From NCBI GenBank assembly GCA_050251055.1, contig JBFWNL010000011.1:32001-96000 (forward strand): a DNA stretch of 64,000 nucleotides, read 5' to 3'. Numbering within the stretch: the first letter of the stretch is position 1; the number at the start of each line of letters is the position of its first letter. This document shows, piece after piece, positions 57,827 through 64,000 of this stretch. This stretch comes from Bacteriovoracia bacterium. Lineage in GTDB: Bacteria; Bdellovibrionota; UBA1018; JBFWNL01. The translations under genes were made by a program, and so were the position numbers. The notes beneath the pieces were generated by a model, which saw nothing but the letters and a program-made list of their open reading frames with translations, made no database searches and was not told where the DNA came from.

Positions 57827-59821
57827 TCACTCACCGTTAATGGGATATGCATGCATAGTGACGCCGCTGACGGCGCCGTCGTGAAAGACGCAGCTTCGCG
57901 TCGTATAGTCTCCGCTGCCCTGGTAGGCGCCAAAGTTAGGCGTGTAGAAACAAGTTTCGTCCGATTCACACAGCCCGTTGTCGTTACCACCCGAGCCAAT
58001 CACTTCCAAAGCGTGCCGCAGATGGGTCTGCCCGAGAGAATTCACCTGGGTCACGTTCCCGTCCACGGCCGCCGGACAGGCGGCGCCATTCACGAAGGGA
58101 TCATTCAAGGTCGAGCCGTGCTCGACGTAACCCAAAAACTGATCATCCGCCGCGGAGAGACGGAAATCCCAGATACGGCAGGTGCCGGATACGCAACGAT
58201 TCCGGTTGTTCACCGCCGGGAAAGCACCGCCATCCAAGCCCCAAAGCCGGAATGGGTTCTCGAAGCGCGACCAATCCACGATCGAAGTGAAAGCCGAAAG
58301 ACCGGCCGTATTGTTGGTGTTCACGGTATCCGTGGTCGTCACCTTGCCTTTGAAGCTATTGGCGGCCGTCTTGCCCGTAACGAGCGCCGCATCCGAAGTG
58401 CCTTGATTACCGCAGGTCGTGTTGACTAACCCCGGATTCGTGCCGCCGACGACACTACAGTCGACGCCATTGCCGCCCAAGAGTATTTTTTTCGTGAACG
58501 TACTGTTATCCAAATTCTCCGCATAGATCCCGGTGGCGTTGTTCACGGCTGCCACGTCCGCGGTAGTTGTAGAATACGAATTCGTAGCAAAAAACCCGTG
58601 CGAAAGTCCAACCGCGTTGTTCGCCAAAAGCAAATTGGAAAAAAGTTGATGGTGGCTGATCTGAGCGGTGCTTAACCCAATATCCGAGTTGACCGCCGTT
58701 GCGTGCGAAATCGTATTATACGAAGAACCGTCGGACCAGGTCAGCGCGCCCACCCCGGCGGAACCAAGAACTTGTGAATAGTAGCTGCGAAAACTGACCG
58801 AATTCCAAAAGCCCTGAATTTCGGTGTTGCTGACGCGGATGCCGCGAAAGACGTTGTATTCGGAAAAGTTAGCAATGACCATCGCCCACTTTCCGTTAAA
58901 GACATTAACTCCTTCAAACAGGTTGCCAGTAATCCCGTCGCCGTAAAACGCGTTATTCAAGCCACCCTCCGCGCCTAGGTTCTTAAAGCGCGAAAACTTC
59001 ACGGCGTTTATCTCGACGACTGTACTGATGTTGCCACCGCTGGTCGGCGTCCCCATGTAGTTGCCTTCCACCCATATGAATTTGCGGTTAGTGGCGCTGA
59101 GCAGGCGCGTGCCGTTGCTGCCGGAATACCGAACCAGGGCGCCCTCCAGCGGCACAATCGCCACGCGGTCGGCTCCGATCACCAGGCCATCGGAGATCAG
59201 GTAGGTGTAGGGCTGGACATAATACACCGTACCGGCCGCAGACAACGTCTGCACTCCGGTACCGTTGTTCTCGATGATTTCCGAAATCGGGTTCGACCAC
59301 CAAGCCGCCGCAGTCGTCTCCGCGACCGGGCAGCCGGAGCGCTGGATCTTCACTGAATTCGGCTGCCACACAAACACGCCGGCGACCTTGCTGATCAGAT
59401 GTTTCAATGAAACTTCGGGTTTCAAGCCGGTGCTGATGAAACGCGCGGTCCCGCCGGACACCTCGCACTTCCATTGAAAATGTCCCAGCGTCTCGGAAAG
59501 CGAAAGACCGTCGCAGCTCGTGTAGCCCGGTAACGAGACCTGCTTCCATTCCCCGCCGTTACGGCAAGCAGAATGAATCCCCGTCTCGGTGCCATCACAA
59601 AGCGTGGCCGGGCTTGCGGTACGGACGTAGGTGTTCCAATTCGGGGCGGCGGAAAAATAGGGCTCGACGCTCGTGCTGACCGTCGCCACGCCCGCGCAAG
59701 GCTCGACGATCGCAACTTCCGCGCTCCGCACGCCGACTTCGGCCAAAAGACAACCGGACAAGCCCACGGCAAGCGCGACCAAAGCCAGCTGACTGAGAAA
59801 GTTTTTAAAACTCGTGCTCAT
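57827..59821 (-). CDS. Surface lipoprotein with right-handed beta-helix and Cys-rich ends
   Basis: Lipobox LSGC, Asn/Gly-rich beta-helix repeats, C-terminal GNDNGLCES.ETC.YTPN.GAYQG. Confidence 0.75.
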   Translation of the reverse strand: MSTSFKNFLSQLALVALAVGLSGCLLAEVGVRSAEVAIVEPCAGVATVSTSVEPYFSAAPNWNTYVRTASPATLCDGTETGIHSACRNGGEWKQVSLPGYTSCDGLSLSETLGHFQWKCEVSGGTARFISTGLKPEVSLKHLISKVAGVFVWQPNSVKIQRSGCPVAETTAAAWWSNPISEIIENNGTGVQTLSAAGTVYYVQPYTYLISDGLVIGADRVAIVPLEGALVRYSGSNGTRLLSATNRKFIWVEGNYMGTPTSGGNISTVVEINAVKFSRFKNLGAEGGLNNAFYGDGITGNLFEGVNVFNGKWAMVIANFSEYNVFRGIRVSNTEIQGFWNSVSFRSYYSQVLGSAGVGALTWSDGSSYNTISHATAVNSDIGLSTAQISHHQLFSNLLLANNAVGLSHGFFATNSYSTTTADVAAVNNATGIYAENLDNSTFTKKILLGGNGVDCSVVGGTNPGLVNTTCGNQGTSDAALVTGKTAANSFKGKVTTTDTVNTNNTAGLSAFTSIVDWSRFENPFRLWGLDGGAFPAVNNRNRCVSGTCRIWDFRLSAADDQFLGYVEHGSTLNDPFVNGAACPAAVDGNVTQVNSLGQTHLRHALEVIGSGGNDNGLCESDETCFYTPNFGAYQGSGDYTTRSCVFHDGAVSGVTMHAYPINGE

Positions 59822-59892: not shown

Positions 59893-59908
59893 TAACTTAT
59901 TGTTTTAA
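59893..59908. promoter_or_regulatory. IHF-like 16-bp motif TAACTTATTGTTTTAA
   Basis: One mismatch to the reverse complement of 12358-12373. Confidence 0.5.
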
Positions 59909-60954
59909 AAAGAATATCCAGCACTAATCGTGGTCGACTTCGCCTGAATTACCACTCCGGAAACCGTTACCAACCGGAGGTCTGAAATGTCCAGCGCGAG
60001 CGACCACGAACGGCGGTCCTCCAGGGGCCAAACCCAAGCCCAGCCCACCGCGATCTCCCGCTTTTCAAACGAGATGTCGAAGAACCCCGACCCCAGCGGA
60101 ACGTACTTCAAATACATGACCGCCGCCTGACGATTGCGGAACGTGTAACGGAGCGCGGGGTAAAGCTGGAAATTCAGGAGCCCCGTATAGCCAAAGGCGT
60201 TGTTCGTGACGAAGGTGGTGCTGTAAAAAATTCCGGTCGAGAAGGTCAGGCGCCAGGGCGAGCGCACGAAAGGAAAGACGTATCCTCCACGCACATTCGC
60301 GCCCAAAATTGAAATCGCGTTTCCCGCCACGCTGGAGCCGAGCGGAACGAAATTGAAATAGACATTGGCCCCGATATCCCAGCGCGGGGGGCCGATGAGG
60401 TAAGAGAACGAAGCCTTGAACGCGAGCGACGTCAGCGAGAACGGGGTGACGCCGGTTTGCTCGTAGCTCAAGAAGTTGAACCCGAGCGAGGGCGTAAAAT
60501 GCGTAAATTTCGGCGGTTGCTTACCAAGCGTTCGACGATAGACGTCGACATCCTTGACGTAAAGATAAACTCGCTCGATCGCGACCTGGCCCTGGGGCCC
60601 GACGAGGGTGAAATCCACGTCATTTACTTCCTCGGTCACTTCAAATTCAAAAGCGAAGGCCTGATTCCTTCGGGTGGAAGCGCCAGCCTTCTTAGCGCCG
60701 TCCCAAACGAGAGCCCAAAGGGGATCCGTGAACTTACCTTCCAGCTTCACGTAAGCGGACATCTTTCCCGGAGGAGTTGAAGCGGGATTTTTACGGAAGA
60801 TCAGGGGAAAGCTTGCAGCCTTCCATTCAATCCAGACCGGCGGGATATCCGGATCGTAGCGCTTGAGCTCAAGCATGGCCTCAGCCGCGCGCGCGGGCCG
60901 GACGGCGAACACCTCGAGCGCCATCGCCGCGAAAAACACGGTAAACTTAATCAA
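59905..60954 (-). CDS. Exported protein with C-terminal outer-membrane beta-barrel
   Basis: Signal peptide, beta-sandwich-like N-domain, amphipathic strands, terminal AGYSF. Confidence 0.65.
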   Translation of the reverse strand: MIKFTVFFAAMALEVFAVRPARAAEAMLELKRYDPDIPPVWIEWKAASFPLIFRKNPASTPPGKMSAYVKLEGKFTDPLWALVWDGAKKAGASTRRNQAFAFEFEVTEEVNDVDFTLVGPQGQVAIERVYLYVKDVDVYRRTLGKQPPKFTHFTPSLGFNFLSYEQTGVTPFSLTSLAFKASFSYLIGPPRWDIGANVYFNFVPLGSSVAGNAISILGANVRGGYVFPFVRSPWRLTFSTGIFYSTTFVTNNAFGYTGLLNFQLYPALRYTFRNRQAAVMYLKYVPLGSGFFDISFEKREIAVGWAWVWPLEDRRSWSLALDISDLRLVTVSGVVIQAKSTTISAGYSF

Positions 60955-61016: not shown

Positions 61017-61406
61017 TTACGGAGAGGTTGGCTCGAGCTTCAAAAAGCCGAGCTTCTGAGCGGCCGCGAAATCTTTTTGGGGAATGCGGTACGCATTGAA
61101 GGACCCCGTAGTCGCCCCGCACATTTGAATCATGGGCTGGCCGTCATCACCCTTCTTCGCTTCGAGCACGGTGACCTTGGCGCCCTGCAGCTCCCGCTGA
61201 GCCTGCTCGATCGTCTTGCCCGCCCCCATGCCGCAGCTTTGGGTACCGTCTTTTTGGTAAATCCAAACCGAATCACCGGCCGCCGCCGCGGCTTTTTCCG
61301 GTTGCGTATTCGGCTTAGAAGAGCTCAATCCTAAGAGCGCCCCGGATCCCAGAATCAAGACCATCCCCGCCATTGCCGAACCCATCTTTCGTTTCATGCG
61401 CGGCAT
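61017..61406 (-). CDS. Small exported protein with one Cys pair
   Basis: Hydrophobic N-terminus; DGTQSCG and IQMCGATTG; start at 61406 or 61397. Confidence 0.65.
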   Translation of the reverse strand: MPRMKRKMGSAMAGMVLILGSGALLGLSSSKPNTQPEKAAAAAGDSVWIYQKDGTQSCGMGAGKTIEQAQRELQGAKVTVLEAKKGDDGQPMIQMCGATTGSFNAYRIPQKDFAAAQKLGFLKLEPTSP

Positions 61407-61425
61407 GCTATCATAGGACCCCACG

Positions 61426-62052
61426 ATGTCGCGCAGCGGAAAAAAAGCCGAAAAACAGCCCTGGATTCGCGAGGGCACCGAGGAAATGCTCGTCGACTCG
61501 CCCGTGGTCAAAGTCGTTCGGCAGCTTTACCGACGCCAAGATCACCCGGAACCGCGAACGCACCGCTTTTACAAACTGATTTCTCCCGACTGGTGCAACG
61601 TCATTCCCATCACCGAAAGCGGCGCCGTAGTCTTCGTCCGACAGTTTCGCGTAGGTCCCGATCAGATGACGCTCGAGTTACCGGGCGGCATCATCGATGC
61701 CACGGATGCCGATATCTCGGCCGCCGCCTTACGGGAGATGACCGAAGAGACGGGCTTCACTGCCGGCCCCGACGCCCAGCTCACCTCACTGGGCTGGACC
61801 CACCCCAACCCAGCCATGCAGGGGAACCGCTGCTTCAGCTTCGTGATCGGCCCCGTTCGCCAAACGCACCCACAAAAACTCGACCCCGGCGAGGACATTG
61901 AAGTGGTCGAAGTGCCCATCTCTGAAATCCCGGAGCGCTTGAGGAACGGTGAAATCTCCCACGCCCTGATGCAGACCGCATTTTTTCGCTTGGCCTTACA
62001 CGCCGGCCGCGATCTGGAGAGTTCCCTCCGCGAATACACGTGTCCACGCTAA
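61426..62052 (+). CDS. NUDIX hydrolase (ADP-ribose pyrophosphatase-like)
   Basis: ELPGGIID..AALREMTEETG Nudix box; VRQFR and LDPGEDIEV. Confidence 0.9.
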   Translation: MSRSGKKAEKQPWIREGTEEMLVDSPVVKVVRQLYRRQDHPEPRTHRFYKLISPDWCNVIPITESGAVVFVRQFRVGPDQMTLELPGGIIDATDADISAAALREMTEETGFTAGPDAQLTSLGWTHPNPAMQGNRCFSFVIGPVRQTHPQKLDPGEDIEVVEVPISEIPERLRNGEISHALMQTAFFRLALHAGRDLESSLREYTCPR

Positions 62053-62552
62053 GCGTCCGGCGTGTGTTCCGCGGATAAGAAAAGCAGAAAGCGCGCATCG
62101 AAGCGGCCTCCCGAATGCTTCCCACAGCAGTCCGCGCAAGCGAGCGCCCGCAGTCGCTTGCGTACCTGAAATTCCTTACGGCAGGCTGGACAAGTGTACG
62201 TGTATTTCATCGGTCGCCGCCGCGGGACCGGGTTGTAACGACTCACGCCCATCTCGACCATCTTGCGGCGAAACTGTGCCGTATGCCCGTAAGGCTTGCG
62301 GCTCAGCCACAGCCAATAGTGAATCATTTCGTGACCAAGCGTATCCCGGATGAGCCTTTCCGCTTCCGCCTCTTCGCGTAAATACAAGGCGATCTCAATA
62401 GCTGGCGCGCGTCGCCACCACAGCGTCCGATGGCCCGGCACGAACCGACCGGCGGCGATCCGCAGCCGGGAGTTCCAAACCAACTTCGGCGGCGGGAGGG
62501 TCCCCCCGAAATGCTGGCGATTCAAGGCGTTGAATTCGGACAAAAGGTCCAT
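62049..62552 (-). CDS. SprT-like zinc metalloprotease with zinc ribbon
   Basis: LNRQHFGG.L, RL..AGRF, TLGHEMIH, GH..F, CPAC...CADC. Confidence 0.88.
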   Translation of the reverse strand: MDLLSEFNALNRQHFGGTLPPPKLVWNSRLRIAAGRFVPGHRTLWWRRAPAIEIALYLREEAEAERLIRDTLGHEMIHYWLWLSRKPYGHTAQFRRKMVEMGVSRYNPVPRRRPMKYTYTCPACRKEFQVRKRLRALACADCCGKHSGGRFDARFLLFLSAEHTPDA

Positions 62553-62766
62553 CGATGCCCTACATACCAATTCGAAGCGTAGATTACTGCTCTTTGTAAG
62601 AATTACCTGATTTATTTTATAATCTATATCCTAGCCGTGCTTGGGGGGTGAAATAATTTTTAGCAATTCCAATAAGTTCGCCTTGCGTCAATCCACTTAA
62701 AAGCGGTATACGCGTTGCAGTATGGGGCCCGGATAGTTGGTTTCTGAGGCTACGTTAGGAGGTACA

Positions 62767-64000
62767 TTGCAGTCACTGCGAAGAGCGGCGGCCTGGGGGC
62801 TGCTGTTTTCGTATTCTATTTCATCTGCCCACGCGGCGCCGGCGGACCTGCTTCGTCTGGTCACGGGCCCGGTGGGCCGTTACGTTTTCCAGGAAACGGA
62901 AGCGGGCGCCGAACTCGCACGCCGCCTGCTCGGTCGGCAGCTCACGTCCCAGGCAGAAGATCTCACTTACCTTGCGCAAAAAATCAGCGCGGAAGAAAAA
63001 CTCGCGCCGATCGCTTCCGCCCTGGAGCGACGCTTGATCAGCATGGAAAACGAATTGAAGCTGGGTCGCGCCGCCGGCGTGTCCCGAGAAGCGGGGGTAA
63101 CGAGCCTGGAAGATGCGCTCGCGGCGAACCCTGCTCTGCGCTTGGAAGAAAAGCTGTTCCTGCAGGCGCGGGCGCTGGCGCCGGCTGTCCAGGAAGGTCT
63201 CGCCGATCTTGCTCACGCGTTGCCGGCGGAATACCAAACCCTCGGCACGCGCACCGCCCGGACCTATCGTGGAGTAGTACAAGGCGTGAAAACGCACTGG
63301 CCCCGGTTTGCGGACCGTGCCGAATCGCTGCCGGTGCAACTACGCAACGGGCTGCTCATCTCGCCAAAGGCGGCCGAGGCGAACCTTTTGAAGAAGTTTA
63401 CACGCGCTGAATTGGATGACGCCGTCACGTACCTCATGGGCAAGTACGGCATTTCCGAAGGCGAGCTGCTTCAGCGGCTGGGCAACCATCACATCAACGT
63501 CGAGGAAGTTCTGACCCGTTTTCAGCAGGGCGGCCGCCTCAATCCAGCCGGCACCGTCTTCGAGCGTATCTACGAAACCTTGGCCTGGGGACTGGTCGAT
63601 CGTCAGCTGAACCACCCCGAGTATCTCAAGAAGCTCGGCCTGCTCGTGGGCGCCGAGCTGCTCGTCACCGCGGTGGCCGAATACTACTTCCGCGGTGATA
63701 AGCTGGCCGAAGAATTTGATCTCTTCATTGGGGACGTCATCGGCTTCACCCTCACCGAGCTGATCTTAGGCTGGACGACGGCCGGGAGAGTGACGAACGA
63801 ACTCTCCCGCCGCGGCGGCGTGCCGATGCCGGCGACCATCTGGTCCCGCGACTTCTCAGCCAAAGCCAAGAGCACGATGTTCCTGAAAAAAGGCATTACC
63901 GTGGGCGCCGGCGGGTTCGCCACCTGTTTCGCTGGTTTCGCAGCCTCCGAGGCGCTCAACTACTGGGACGAGCTGGACGATCCGAACTCCGCGTCCGTGT
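62767..64000 (+). CDS. Signal-peptide membrane protein with RETICULATA/DUF3411-like domain (3'-truncated, absent from ORF track)
   Basis: AGGAGGT RBS then TTG; frame open to the window end (about 411 codons): MQSLRRAAAWGLLFSYSISSAHA...GLVDRQLNHPEYLKKL...AEYYFRGDKLAEEFDLFIGDVI...FLKKGITVGAGGFATCFAGFAASEAL. Confidence 0.75.
   Translation, partial: MQSLRRAAAWGLLFSYSISSAHAAPADLLRLVTGPVGRYVFQETEAGAELARRLLGRQLTSQAEDLTYLAQKISAEEKLAPIASALERRLISMENELKLGRAAGVSREAGVTSLEDALAANPALRLEEKLFLQARALAPAVQEGLADLAHALPAEYQTLGTRTARTYRGVVQGVKTHWPRFADRAESLPVQLRNGLLISPKAAEANLLKKFTRAELDDAVTYLMGKYGISEGELLQRLGNHHINVEEVLTRFQQGGRLNPAGTVFERIYETLAWGLVDRQLNHPEYLKKLGLLVGAELLVTAVAEYYFRGDKLAEEFDLFIGDVIGFTLTELILGWTTAGRVTNELSRRGGVPMPATIWSRDFSAKAKSTMFLKKGITVGAGGFATCFAGFAASEALNYWDELDDPNSASV

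Follow-up and report, generated by a model that had tools for sequence, protein, structure and literature searches.

A distant bacterial relative of the plant RETICULATA-like (DUF3411) domain behind a modular leader in an order of Bdellovibrionota

Gene and locus

We analyzed a stretch of 64,000 nucleotides (nt), here called the window, from a Bdellovibrionota genome (G000:C11:32001-96000), the assembly of which comprises 3.77 Mb in 21 contigs with 93.5% completeness. At its right-hand edge, a plus-strand gene encodes a protein, P0001, with a predicted Sec signal peptide, a large helical N-terminal region and a C-terminal half genuinely, if distantly, related to the RETICULATA-like (DUF3411, PF11891) domain. 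An initial annotation had presented the gene as an unannotated bacterial homologue of the plastid family. ‘Unannotated’ was too strong, the gene being absent only from the track that had been read: an identical protein in the public record (P0002, also 522 amino acids (aa)) carries a precomputed PF11891 label, and NCBI names a relative from the same order ‘RETICULATA-related protein’. The suggested bacterial setting is supported, as a genome of the same order is titled ‘Bdellovibrionales bacterium’, which places the window in Bdellovibrionota.

In the open reading frame (ORF) listing, the plus strand shows one stop-free frame that opens at 62737 and reaches the edge of the window (421 aa). The sequence reads AGGAGG at 62757..62762, a Shine-Dalgarno motif 4 nt before a TTG start codon at 62767, and extension along the contig placed the stop at L001 3236, that is, at window position 64335 (window position = L001 + 61099). 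The coding sequence thus covers 62767..64000 within the window and continues to 64335, stop included, giving 522 aa counted from the TTG, of which 411 are encoded in the window. The initial annotation had been right about the missing stop, the strong Shine-Dalgarno motif and the TTG start, and the peptides it quoted (RQLNHPEYLKKL, AEYYFRGDKLAEEFDLFIGDVI, ELILGW and PATIWSRDFSAKAKSTMFLKKGITVGAGGFATCFAGFAASEAL) are all present in the translation. Because P0002 likewise has 522 aa, the gene caller behind the public record must have picked the same start. Four parts follow one another on the plus strand: a signal peptide judged by eye (aa 1-23, 62767..62835), a leader module that recurs on other proteins (aa 24 to ~100, 62836..63066), a helical linker (aa 101-200) with a pre-domain (aa 201-277) delimited by alignment A1 and predicted helices (63067..63597), and the RETICULATA-like domain identified by Pfam and hhalign, of which aa 278-411 lie in the window (63598..64000). 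Pfam extends this domain to aa 439 (64083), and hhalign extends the homology with plant proteins to aa 486 (64224).

Pfam analysis of the surroundings identified a NUDIX gene (61426-62052, plus strand) and a divergent SprT-like gene (62049-62570, minus strand) upstream, as well as a convergent mutS2 gene with Smr and MutS_V domains downstream (L001 3233-4399, minus strand), the 3' end of which overlaps that of the PF11891 gene by 4 nt. The A+T-rich gap between the SprT-like and PF11891 genes holds a promoter-like element, TTGTAA-18 nt-TATAAT (62594..62623, L001 1495-1524, plus strand), matching 10 of 12 consensus positions; it is a consensus match only and weak evidence, with one site found against 0.6 expected in shuffles. 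The gene thus appears to stand outside any operon, with a promoter-like site to itself. On a metagenome contig, the gene for a relative with 34% identity, P0005, lies in the same order of NUDIX (+), PF11891 gene (+) and convergent mutS2 (-). Because the G+C content of the gene equals that of its neighbours, in DNA of ~60% G+C, and because gene order is conserved around P0005, we infer an old resident gene in a vertically kept locus. The Pfam results for the gene and its neighbours gave no sign of a defence system or phage, although no defence-library scan was made. Sequencing runs listed with the gene comprise two DNA runs from one study, from which the assembly may have been made, and no RNA run, and they do not bear on expression. 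Farther upstream, before the NUDIX gene, come three ORFs in a row on the minus strand (664, 349 and 164 aa; 57827-59821, 59905-60954 and 61017-61511), which match no Pfam family at E <= 0.001.

Membership in the RETICULATA-like family

The complete protein matches PF11891 with 43.2 bits (gathering cut-off 25, E 4.7e-11), aligning aa 278-439 with positions 1-173 of the 177-position profile. The collinear resemblance to DUF3411 over ~130 aa that had been proposed is therefore real and longer than suggested. A six-frame search of the source genome returned this domain as its sole match (44.8 bits), and none of 14 control genomes matched. Among 1.84 billion representative proteins, phmmer found 19 at E <= 0.001, P0001 included, 10 of them at <= 1e-10 and seven at <= 1e-30; full-length relatives are 24-34% identical. 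PF11891 was detected on 13 of 18 relatives scanned, at 31-93.6 bits. As for the other five, P0013 aligns over the domain without a Pfam hit and four share the N-terminal module only.

Profile comparison extended this relationship to eukaryote-type proteins. An alignment of 12 bacterial sequences (A1) matched profile A6 in hhalign with 97.3% and E 1.9e-11 over 199 columns, pairing P0001 273-486 with P0024 271-485 and hence reaching past the Pfam borders. A6 consists of two sequences only, P0024 from the liverwort Calypogeia fissa (555 aa) and P0025 (529 aa), the latter taken as eukaryotic only by its 43% identity to P0024 and their shared N-terminal make-up. Across 18 rows that include the plant protein P0024 and the eukaryote-like P0025, R279, R436 and N469 never vary, and conservation at R309, N434 and G473 is at least 90%; the 12-member bacterial clade of P0001, below called clade A, has seven invariant columns in alignment A1. 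In the ESM Atlas, the best feature match of P0001 was a RETICULATA-related cluster (0.88, 195 of 256 features shared). The Atlas model of P0001, with a mean predicted local distance difference test (pLDDT) value of 0.52, was superimposed on eukaryotic PF11891 clusters with template modelling (TM) scores of 0.73/0.72, 0.74 and 0.70 over 199-211 residues within 265-489, both sides of this comparison being predictions. The profile and structure checks proposed along with the initial annotation therefore both returned matches to the family. Because the Pfam score, the PF11891 matches of the relatives, the profile-profile alignment and the Atlas comparison agree, we assign the C-terminal half to the RETICULATA-like family as a true, distant member. 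P0001 matched no NCBIfam family, and word-indexed protein searches with P0001 and with the 18-row alignment A3 returned P0001 alone.

We also considered whether the resemblance arose by chance, through a long non-coding frame in G+C-rich DNA and a spurious Pfam match. The ~60% G+C content, shadow ORFs of 91-172 aa on the opposite strand and the score of only 28.1 bits for the in-window 411 aa would be in keeping with such an explanation. It is refuted, and in our view deserves next to no credence, given the full-length relatives (10 proteins with E up to 1e-10, P0001 included), the invariant columns across the clade, the agreement of independent profile and structure evidence and the conserved synteny.

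Distribution and clades

To place P0001 among prokaryotes, we searched 401 genomes of the phylum, 92 from the order of the window and 309 from outside it. Eight matched PF11891 at E <= 0.001, seven of them above the cut-off and all seven in the order of the window. The eighth, G297 from another order, scored 20.1 bits; it was not counted, being below the cut-off and not recovered by our own domain profile at E up to 1e-3. Among 116 genomes of the order, 12 matched at E <= 0.01, 11 of them above the cut-off, and family f11, second in sampling within the order here, gave no PF11891 match in any of its 19 genomes. A clade-A profile gave a full-length match in the source genome only; otherwise, clade A was found only among database proteins and metagenome contigs, and a metagenome scan added three further clade-A loci. 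In a scan of 185,579 species (one genome each) with two plant-like peptide patterns, which sees only sequences keeping these patterns, two loci were confirmed among 79 pattern matches, both with Bdellovibrionales or Bdellovibrionota titles and one of them the locus of P0021. A species-genome scan with conserved peptides of alignment A2 gave 25 pattern matches, none of them confirmed, whereas in A1 no stretch is sufficiently conserved for such a scan. Neither plasmids, searched by tblastn with P0001, nor phages, searched with P0021, yielded a match. Within the limits of these searches, the family is rare in prokaryotes and was found in one Bdellovibrionota order and nowhere else, cyanobacteria included.

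A maximum-likelihood tree built from 26 domain rows shows this one order to harbour three deep clades or more. Two f12-type proteins with large inserts, the weak G297 match and L043, a near-duplicate of P0004, were left out, and short masked stretches were closed up in three clade-B rows. Clade A comprises 12 rows including P0001 (support 98/97), and clade B comprises 10 rows of proteins of 800-980 aa (99/98). Clade C has two rows and joins the two eukaryote-type rows (100/98).

Clade C consists of P0022 (identical to P0021), from a Bdellovibrionales genome and named ‘RETICULATA-related protein’ by NCBI, and P0023, which is 69% identical to it. These proteins of 515-551 aa come from the same GTDB order as P0001 and resemble it in their signal peptide, leader module, helical region and PF11891 domain, but the domain is far nearer to the plant type, scoring 140.9 and 133.6 bits as against 44.8 for P0001 in the same genome searches. 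The corresponding genes, L006 1153-2805 (-) in G005 and L015 in G014, thus place a far more plant-like domain behind the same bacterial leader, and in this pair the similarity to the liverwort protein reaches into the pre-domain.

Clade B proteins (P0014, P0017 and the products of L007, L009, L010, L011, L016 and L019) share with P0001 a PF11891-type domain near the C-terminus and a gene adjoining mutS2, but they are longer (~800-980 aa) and carry a different N-terminal region of 500-600 aa, which has a hydrophobic stretch of its own. A conserved Y.FDFL-type motif stands at the end of most of them, shortly before the C-terminus in P0014, P0015, P0017 and the L009, L016 and L019 ORFs, and a glycine-rich hydrophobic stretch lies in mid-protein. 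Adjacency to mutS2 recurs in clade A (L001 3233-4399 (-), L042 6605-9094 (-)) and in clade B (L007, L009 and L010), convergent at the 3' end in the former and downstream on the same strand in the latter. This arrangement hints that both clades descend from one old locus that was later rearranged; the alternative is that the adjacency is a coincidence.

Predicted domain fold and membrane topology

Folded alone with a 19-row alignment, the domain gave a confident model (mean pLDDT 83.4, predicted TM score 0.76) of one short and five long helices, the latter spanning 286-313, 317-348, 365-401, 411-451 and 455-494 (28-41 residues). The mean net charge over the 12-member clade alternates between the connecting segments, from -1.8 in loop 311-316 to +4.0 in 341-374, -0.6 in the next loop, +4.8 in 435-462 and -3.5 in the C-terminal tail. 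Combined with an exported N-terminus and the positive-inside rule, these values fit four spanning helices with both ends outside, a topology that we regard as predicted from sequence. The membrane domain proposed in the initial annotation is best called putative, with five long helices and alternating loop charges on one side and only moderate hydrophobicity on the other, the best 19-aa Kyte-Doolittle window being 1.51. When four copies of aa 268-492 were co-folded, the score was 0.00 against a mark of 0.42, in a run made without controls, which counts neither for nor against a homo-oligomer.

Comparison with solved structures yielded none resembling the domain. A sequence-profile search gave a best E value of 0.0015, to designed proteins and over 34 positions only, and the best Foldseek E values were 0.23 (full model) and 0.35 (domain model). 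VIA-align reached best Z scores of 7.4 and 7.3, below the chance level for helical models. We draw neither a fold assignment nor a claim of a new fold from these data.

Signal peptide, leader module and helical N-terminal half

Residues 1-23, LQSLRRAAAWGLLFSYSISSAHA, are followed by AP and were recognized by eye as a signal peptide with two arginines, a 12-aa hydrophobic core and the terminal A-H-A that had been claimed initially. Relatives with aligned N-termini possess comparable hydrophobic leaders ending in A-x-A or A-x-G. The ~250-aa helical region expected to follow is likewise in line with the predictions, in which residues 24-270 are all-helical, albeit at low confidence (pLDDT < 50 for 61-210 and ~62-66 thereafter). 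Within this region, residues 201-277 are conserved in the clade, E215 and R237 being the same in every type-A sequence of alignment A1. In the ESM Atlas, the N-terminal half gave no usable feature match and structural similarities of TM <= 0.32.

Between aa 24 and ~100, the protein carries a leader module with the consensus L.RL..GPVGRY...ETE.GAEL..RLLGR ... LERRL, which matches no Pfam family. The same module heads three further ORFs of the genome, of 891, 452 and 321 aa, the shortest of which bears pentapeptide repeats, making four copies in all, and also occurs on the pentapeptide-repeat proteins P0019 and P0020 and on a protein of the same order with a cytidylyltransferase-like domain (PF01467, E 8.7e-11). 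A module-only profile detected it in 11 of the 116 genomes searched within the order, each of the 11 having between one and four copies. Over the wider set, the ~80-aa module reads L.RL..SPVGR..L.ET..GA.L..RLLGR ... LE.RL. The C-termini behind it comprise PF11891, pentapeptide repeats, the cytidylyltransferase-like domain and two unknown domains, and other sites of the module are L004 1411-1800 (+), L038 568-1926 (-), L003 1414-3201 (+) and L026 1336-3351 (+). The leader module may be a sorting or delivery domain.

If it is a delivery domain, P0001 might be a prey- or host-directed effector. After Sec export, the protein would then leave the cell and its weakly hydrophobic domain would insert into the membrane of another cell, leaking amino acids or ions to the predator. 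The attachment of one leader to unrelated C-termini, namely those of the 891-, 452- and 321-aa ORFs, P0019, P0020 and the PF01467 protein, would suit this role, as would its occurrence at one to four copies in a minority of genomes, a distribution typical of modular families of secreted proteins. The domain, being weakly hydrophobic, could also pass through Sec without arrest, and the lineage, Bdellovibrionota, points the same way. However, predation by the source organism itself is only a presumption, and the gene has no secretion system, chaperone or immunity gene beside it, its neighbours being the NUDIX, SprT-like and mutS2 genes. The lack of PF11891 in all 19 f11 genomes moreover means that the domain is not a general tool of the order, and PMC12449267 describes the plant relatives as resident inner-membrane proteins. 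We consider an effector role unlikely.

Comparison with plant RETICULATA proteins

In 2025, Arabidopsis RE1, a plastid inner-envelope protein and the only member of the family tested, was identified as the first transporter of basic amino acids in plastids (PMC12449267). As reported there, RE1 restores ornithine uptake in the yeast arg11 mutant, membranes bearing it exchange ornithine, arginine, citrulline and lysine in liposomes, and it runs as a complex of ~250 kDa in chloroplasts; the supplementary text adds that plant RE1 obtained from E. coli, cell-free systems or oocytes was inactive. Four to six membrane helices are given for plant members, and RE1 and RER1 feature a plastid transit peptide, an N-terminal polyglycine stretch and a functionally required GxQ motif at the C-terminus, with Gln as the last residue (PMC12449267).

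We compared P0001 with RE1 and RER1 through these descriptions rather than by direct alignment. Both carry PF11891/DUF3411 in the C-terminal half, and predictions make each of them all-helical, with perhaps four to six helices in the membrane, the homology running from a ‘DR..(A)NP.F’ start via ‘SSN.RYQ’ to the last helix with N...G. Unlike the plant proteins, P0001 is a distant member at 43 bits to the family profile, bears a predicted bacterial Sec signal where they have the plastid transit peptide and has, in place of the plant N-terminus, a 250-aa helical region that includes the Bdellovibrionota-specific leader module. It also lacks the polyglycine stretch, with no glycine run longer than two in its 522 aa, as well as the C-terminal GxQ, which is missing from all 11 clade-A relatives too. 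Because P0024 and P0025 lack GxQ as well, the motif marks a subgroup and not the family. P0024 and P0025 align with clade A over 199 columns and share R279, R436 and N469, but they differ in an acidic, glycine-rich N-terminal region and another pre-domain, and they group with clade C.

P0001 might also be a membrane or periplasmic protein with a RETICULATA-like fold that transports nothing, such as an envelope scaffold or sensor. The domain would then be a helical module for oligomerization or membrane association, with transport having evolved only in the RE1/RER1 branch. In PMC12449267, RE1 alone is demonstrated to transport; RER1 is a proposed transporter, and for other members the paper goes no further than a suggestion. 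PMC12114778 places RER5 and RER6 in the thylakoid lumen. P0001 itself lacks the RE1-specific GxQ motif, the length of its helices (37-41 residues) and its low hydrophobicity are unusual for a carrier, and its N-terminal half is large, conserved and helical. Against this stand the polar or charged residues R279, R309, N434, R436 and N469, conserved inside helices across kingdoms, for which a substrate path is a better fit than a scaffold, and the alternating loop charges, which are the pattern of a polytopic membrane protein. We regard a non-transporting role as possible, if on the unlikely side.

Proposed function

We propose that P0001 may provide a solute pathway in the cytoplasmic membrane of its own cell, with the N-terminal half in the periplasm, and judge this the most probable of the readings, at about even odds. 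A solute channel in the organism's own or a prey membrane had been suggested in the initial annotation, an idea that draws on analogy with Arabidopsis RE1. The protein would be exported through Sec and its signal peptide cleaved, a step suggested because the AxA-type leader is conserved in the relatives. The helical N-terminal part of ~250 aa (leader module, linker and pre-domain) would stay in the periplasm, while the C-terminal 220 aa, the RETICULATA-like helical domain, would be placed in the cytoplasmic membrane with spanning helices at ~317-340, 375-397, 416-434 and 463-486. The basic loops 341-374 and 435-462 would face the cytoplasm, and helix 288-310 and the acidic C-terminal tail would lie on the periplasmic side. 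By analogy with RE1, several copies might then assemble into a route for small solutes, which could be basic amino acids. By this homology, the solute transported would perhaps be amino acids.

Several observations weigh against a membrane solute pathway. Any transport by the bacterial members is a prediction from sequence, as is their localization, and P0001 is only distant kin of RE1, with a search of 1.84 billion representatives giving just the 19 proteins mentioned above. The C-terminal GxQ with its terminal Gln, essential in RE1, is absent (the protein ends in ...DASVAPSP), as is the polyglycine stretch. The predicted helices are much longer than the bilayer is thick and contain Asp or Glu, the best hydropathy window is low for membrane helices, and the clade mean hydropathy of the last two helices is 0.52 and 0.28. 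The leader module also heads cargo that makes little sense in the periplasm, namely the PF01467 protein; cytidylyltransferase-type enzymes use nucleotides, which the periplasm lacks. Finally, the eukaryote-type rows group with bacterial clade C and not with the clade of P0001.

Origin of the family

In two papers from 2025, the RETICULATA family is described as exclusive to plastid-bearing organisms (PMC12449267) and DUF3411 as plant-specific (PMC12114778). Our literature searches found no account of bacterial DUF3411/PF11891 members; among the matches listed, the domain appeared in plants or ‘reticulata’ was a species name. The Pfam text for DUF3411 reportedly places the domain in bacteria and eukaryotes. 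Already known, then, are the family and the NCBI pipeline name for one bacterial member, while a divergent bacterial clade with its own architecture is new. The novelty seen in the initial annotation would have fallen had bacterial members proven widespread and already characterized; they are rare. Their existence makes the plant-specific or plastid-exclusive statement too strong and offers bacterial versions for biochemical and structural work. For the bacterium, it adds a little-studied, predicted exported membrane protein and a leader module common to several exported proteins.

The origin of the family becomes a testable question, with transfer from an alga to bacteria on one side and the reverse on the other. 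The initial annotation had suggested that the protein may bear on this origin, and it does, the phylogeny placing the eukaryote-type rows beside clade C. Without a root, and with no more than two eukaryote-type rows, both of one type, the tree fits a single transfer from an alga to bacteria as well as the reverse. A more daring scenario would have the plastid family, instead of originating in plastid-bearing eukaryotes, descend from a secreted membrane protein of the Bdellovibrionota type with which predators, by means of a modular leader, withdraw amino acids from other cells. Taken up by an early alga, such a ‘metabolite tap’ would then have been installed in the envelope of the cyanobacterial endosymbiont as an outlet for its basic amino acids. 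As this scenario requires, the eukaryote-type rows stand beside one of three deep bacterial clades, and the sole prokaryotic homes found belong to one non-cyanobacterial order; we nevertheless hold it to be very improbable.

A further form of the domain occurs in family f12, at L008 (G011) and L018 (G017). The frames of 814 and 926 aa contain a plant-like domain start, VDV.CVF..D.ALV.FLSPR, with the rest of the domain split by long inserts, and these f12-type proteins score 31.5 and 21.1 bits in Pfam.

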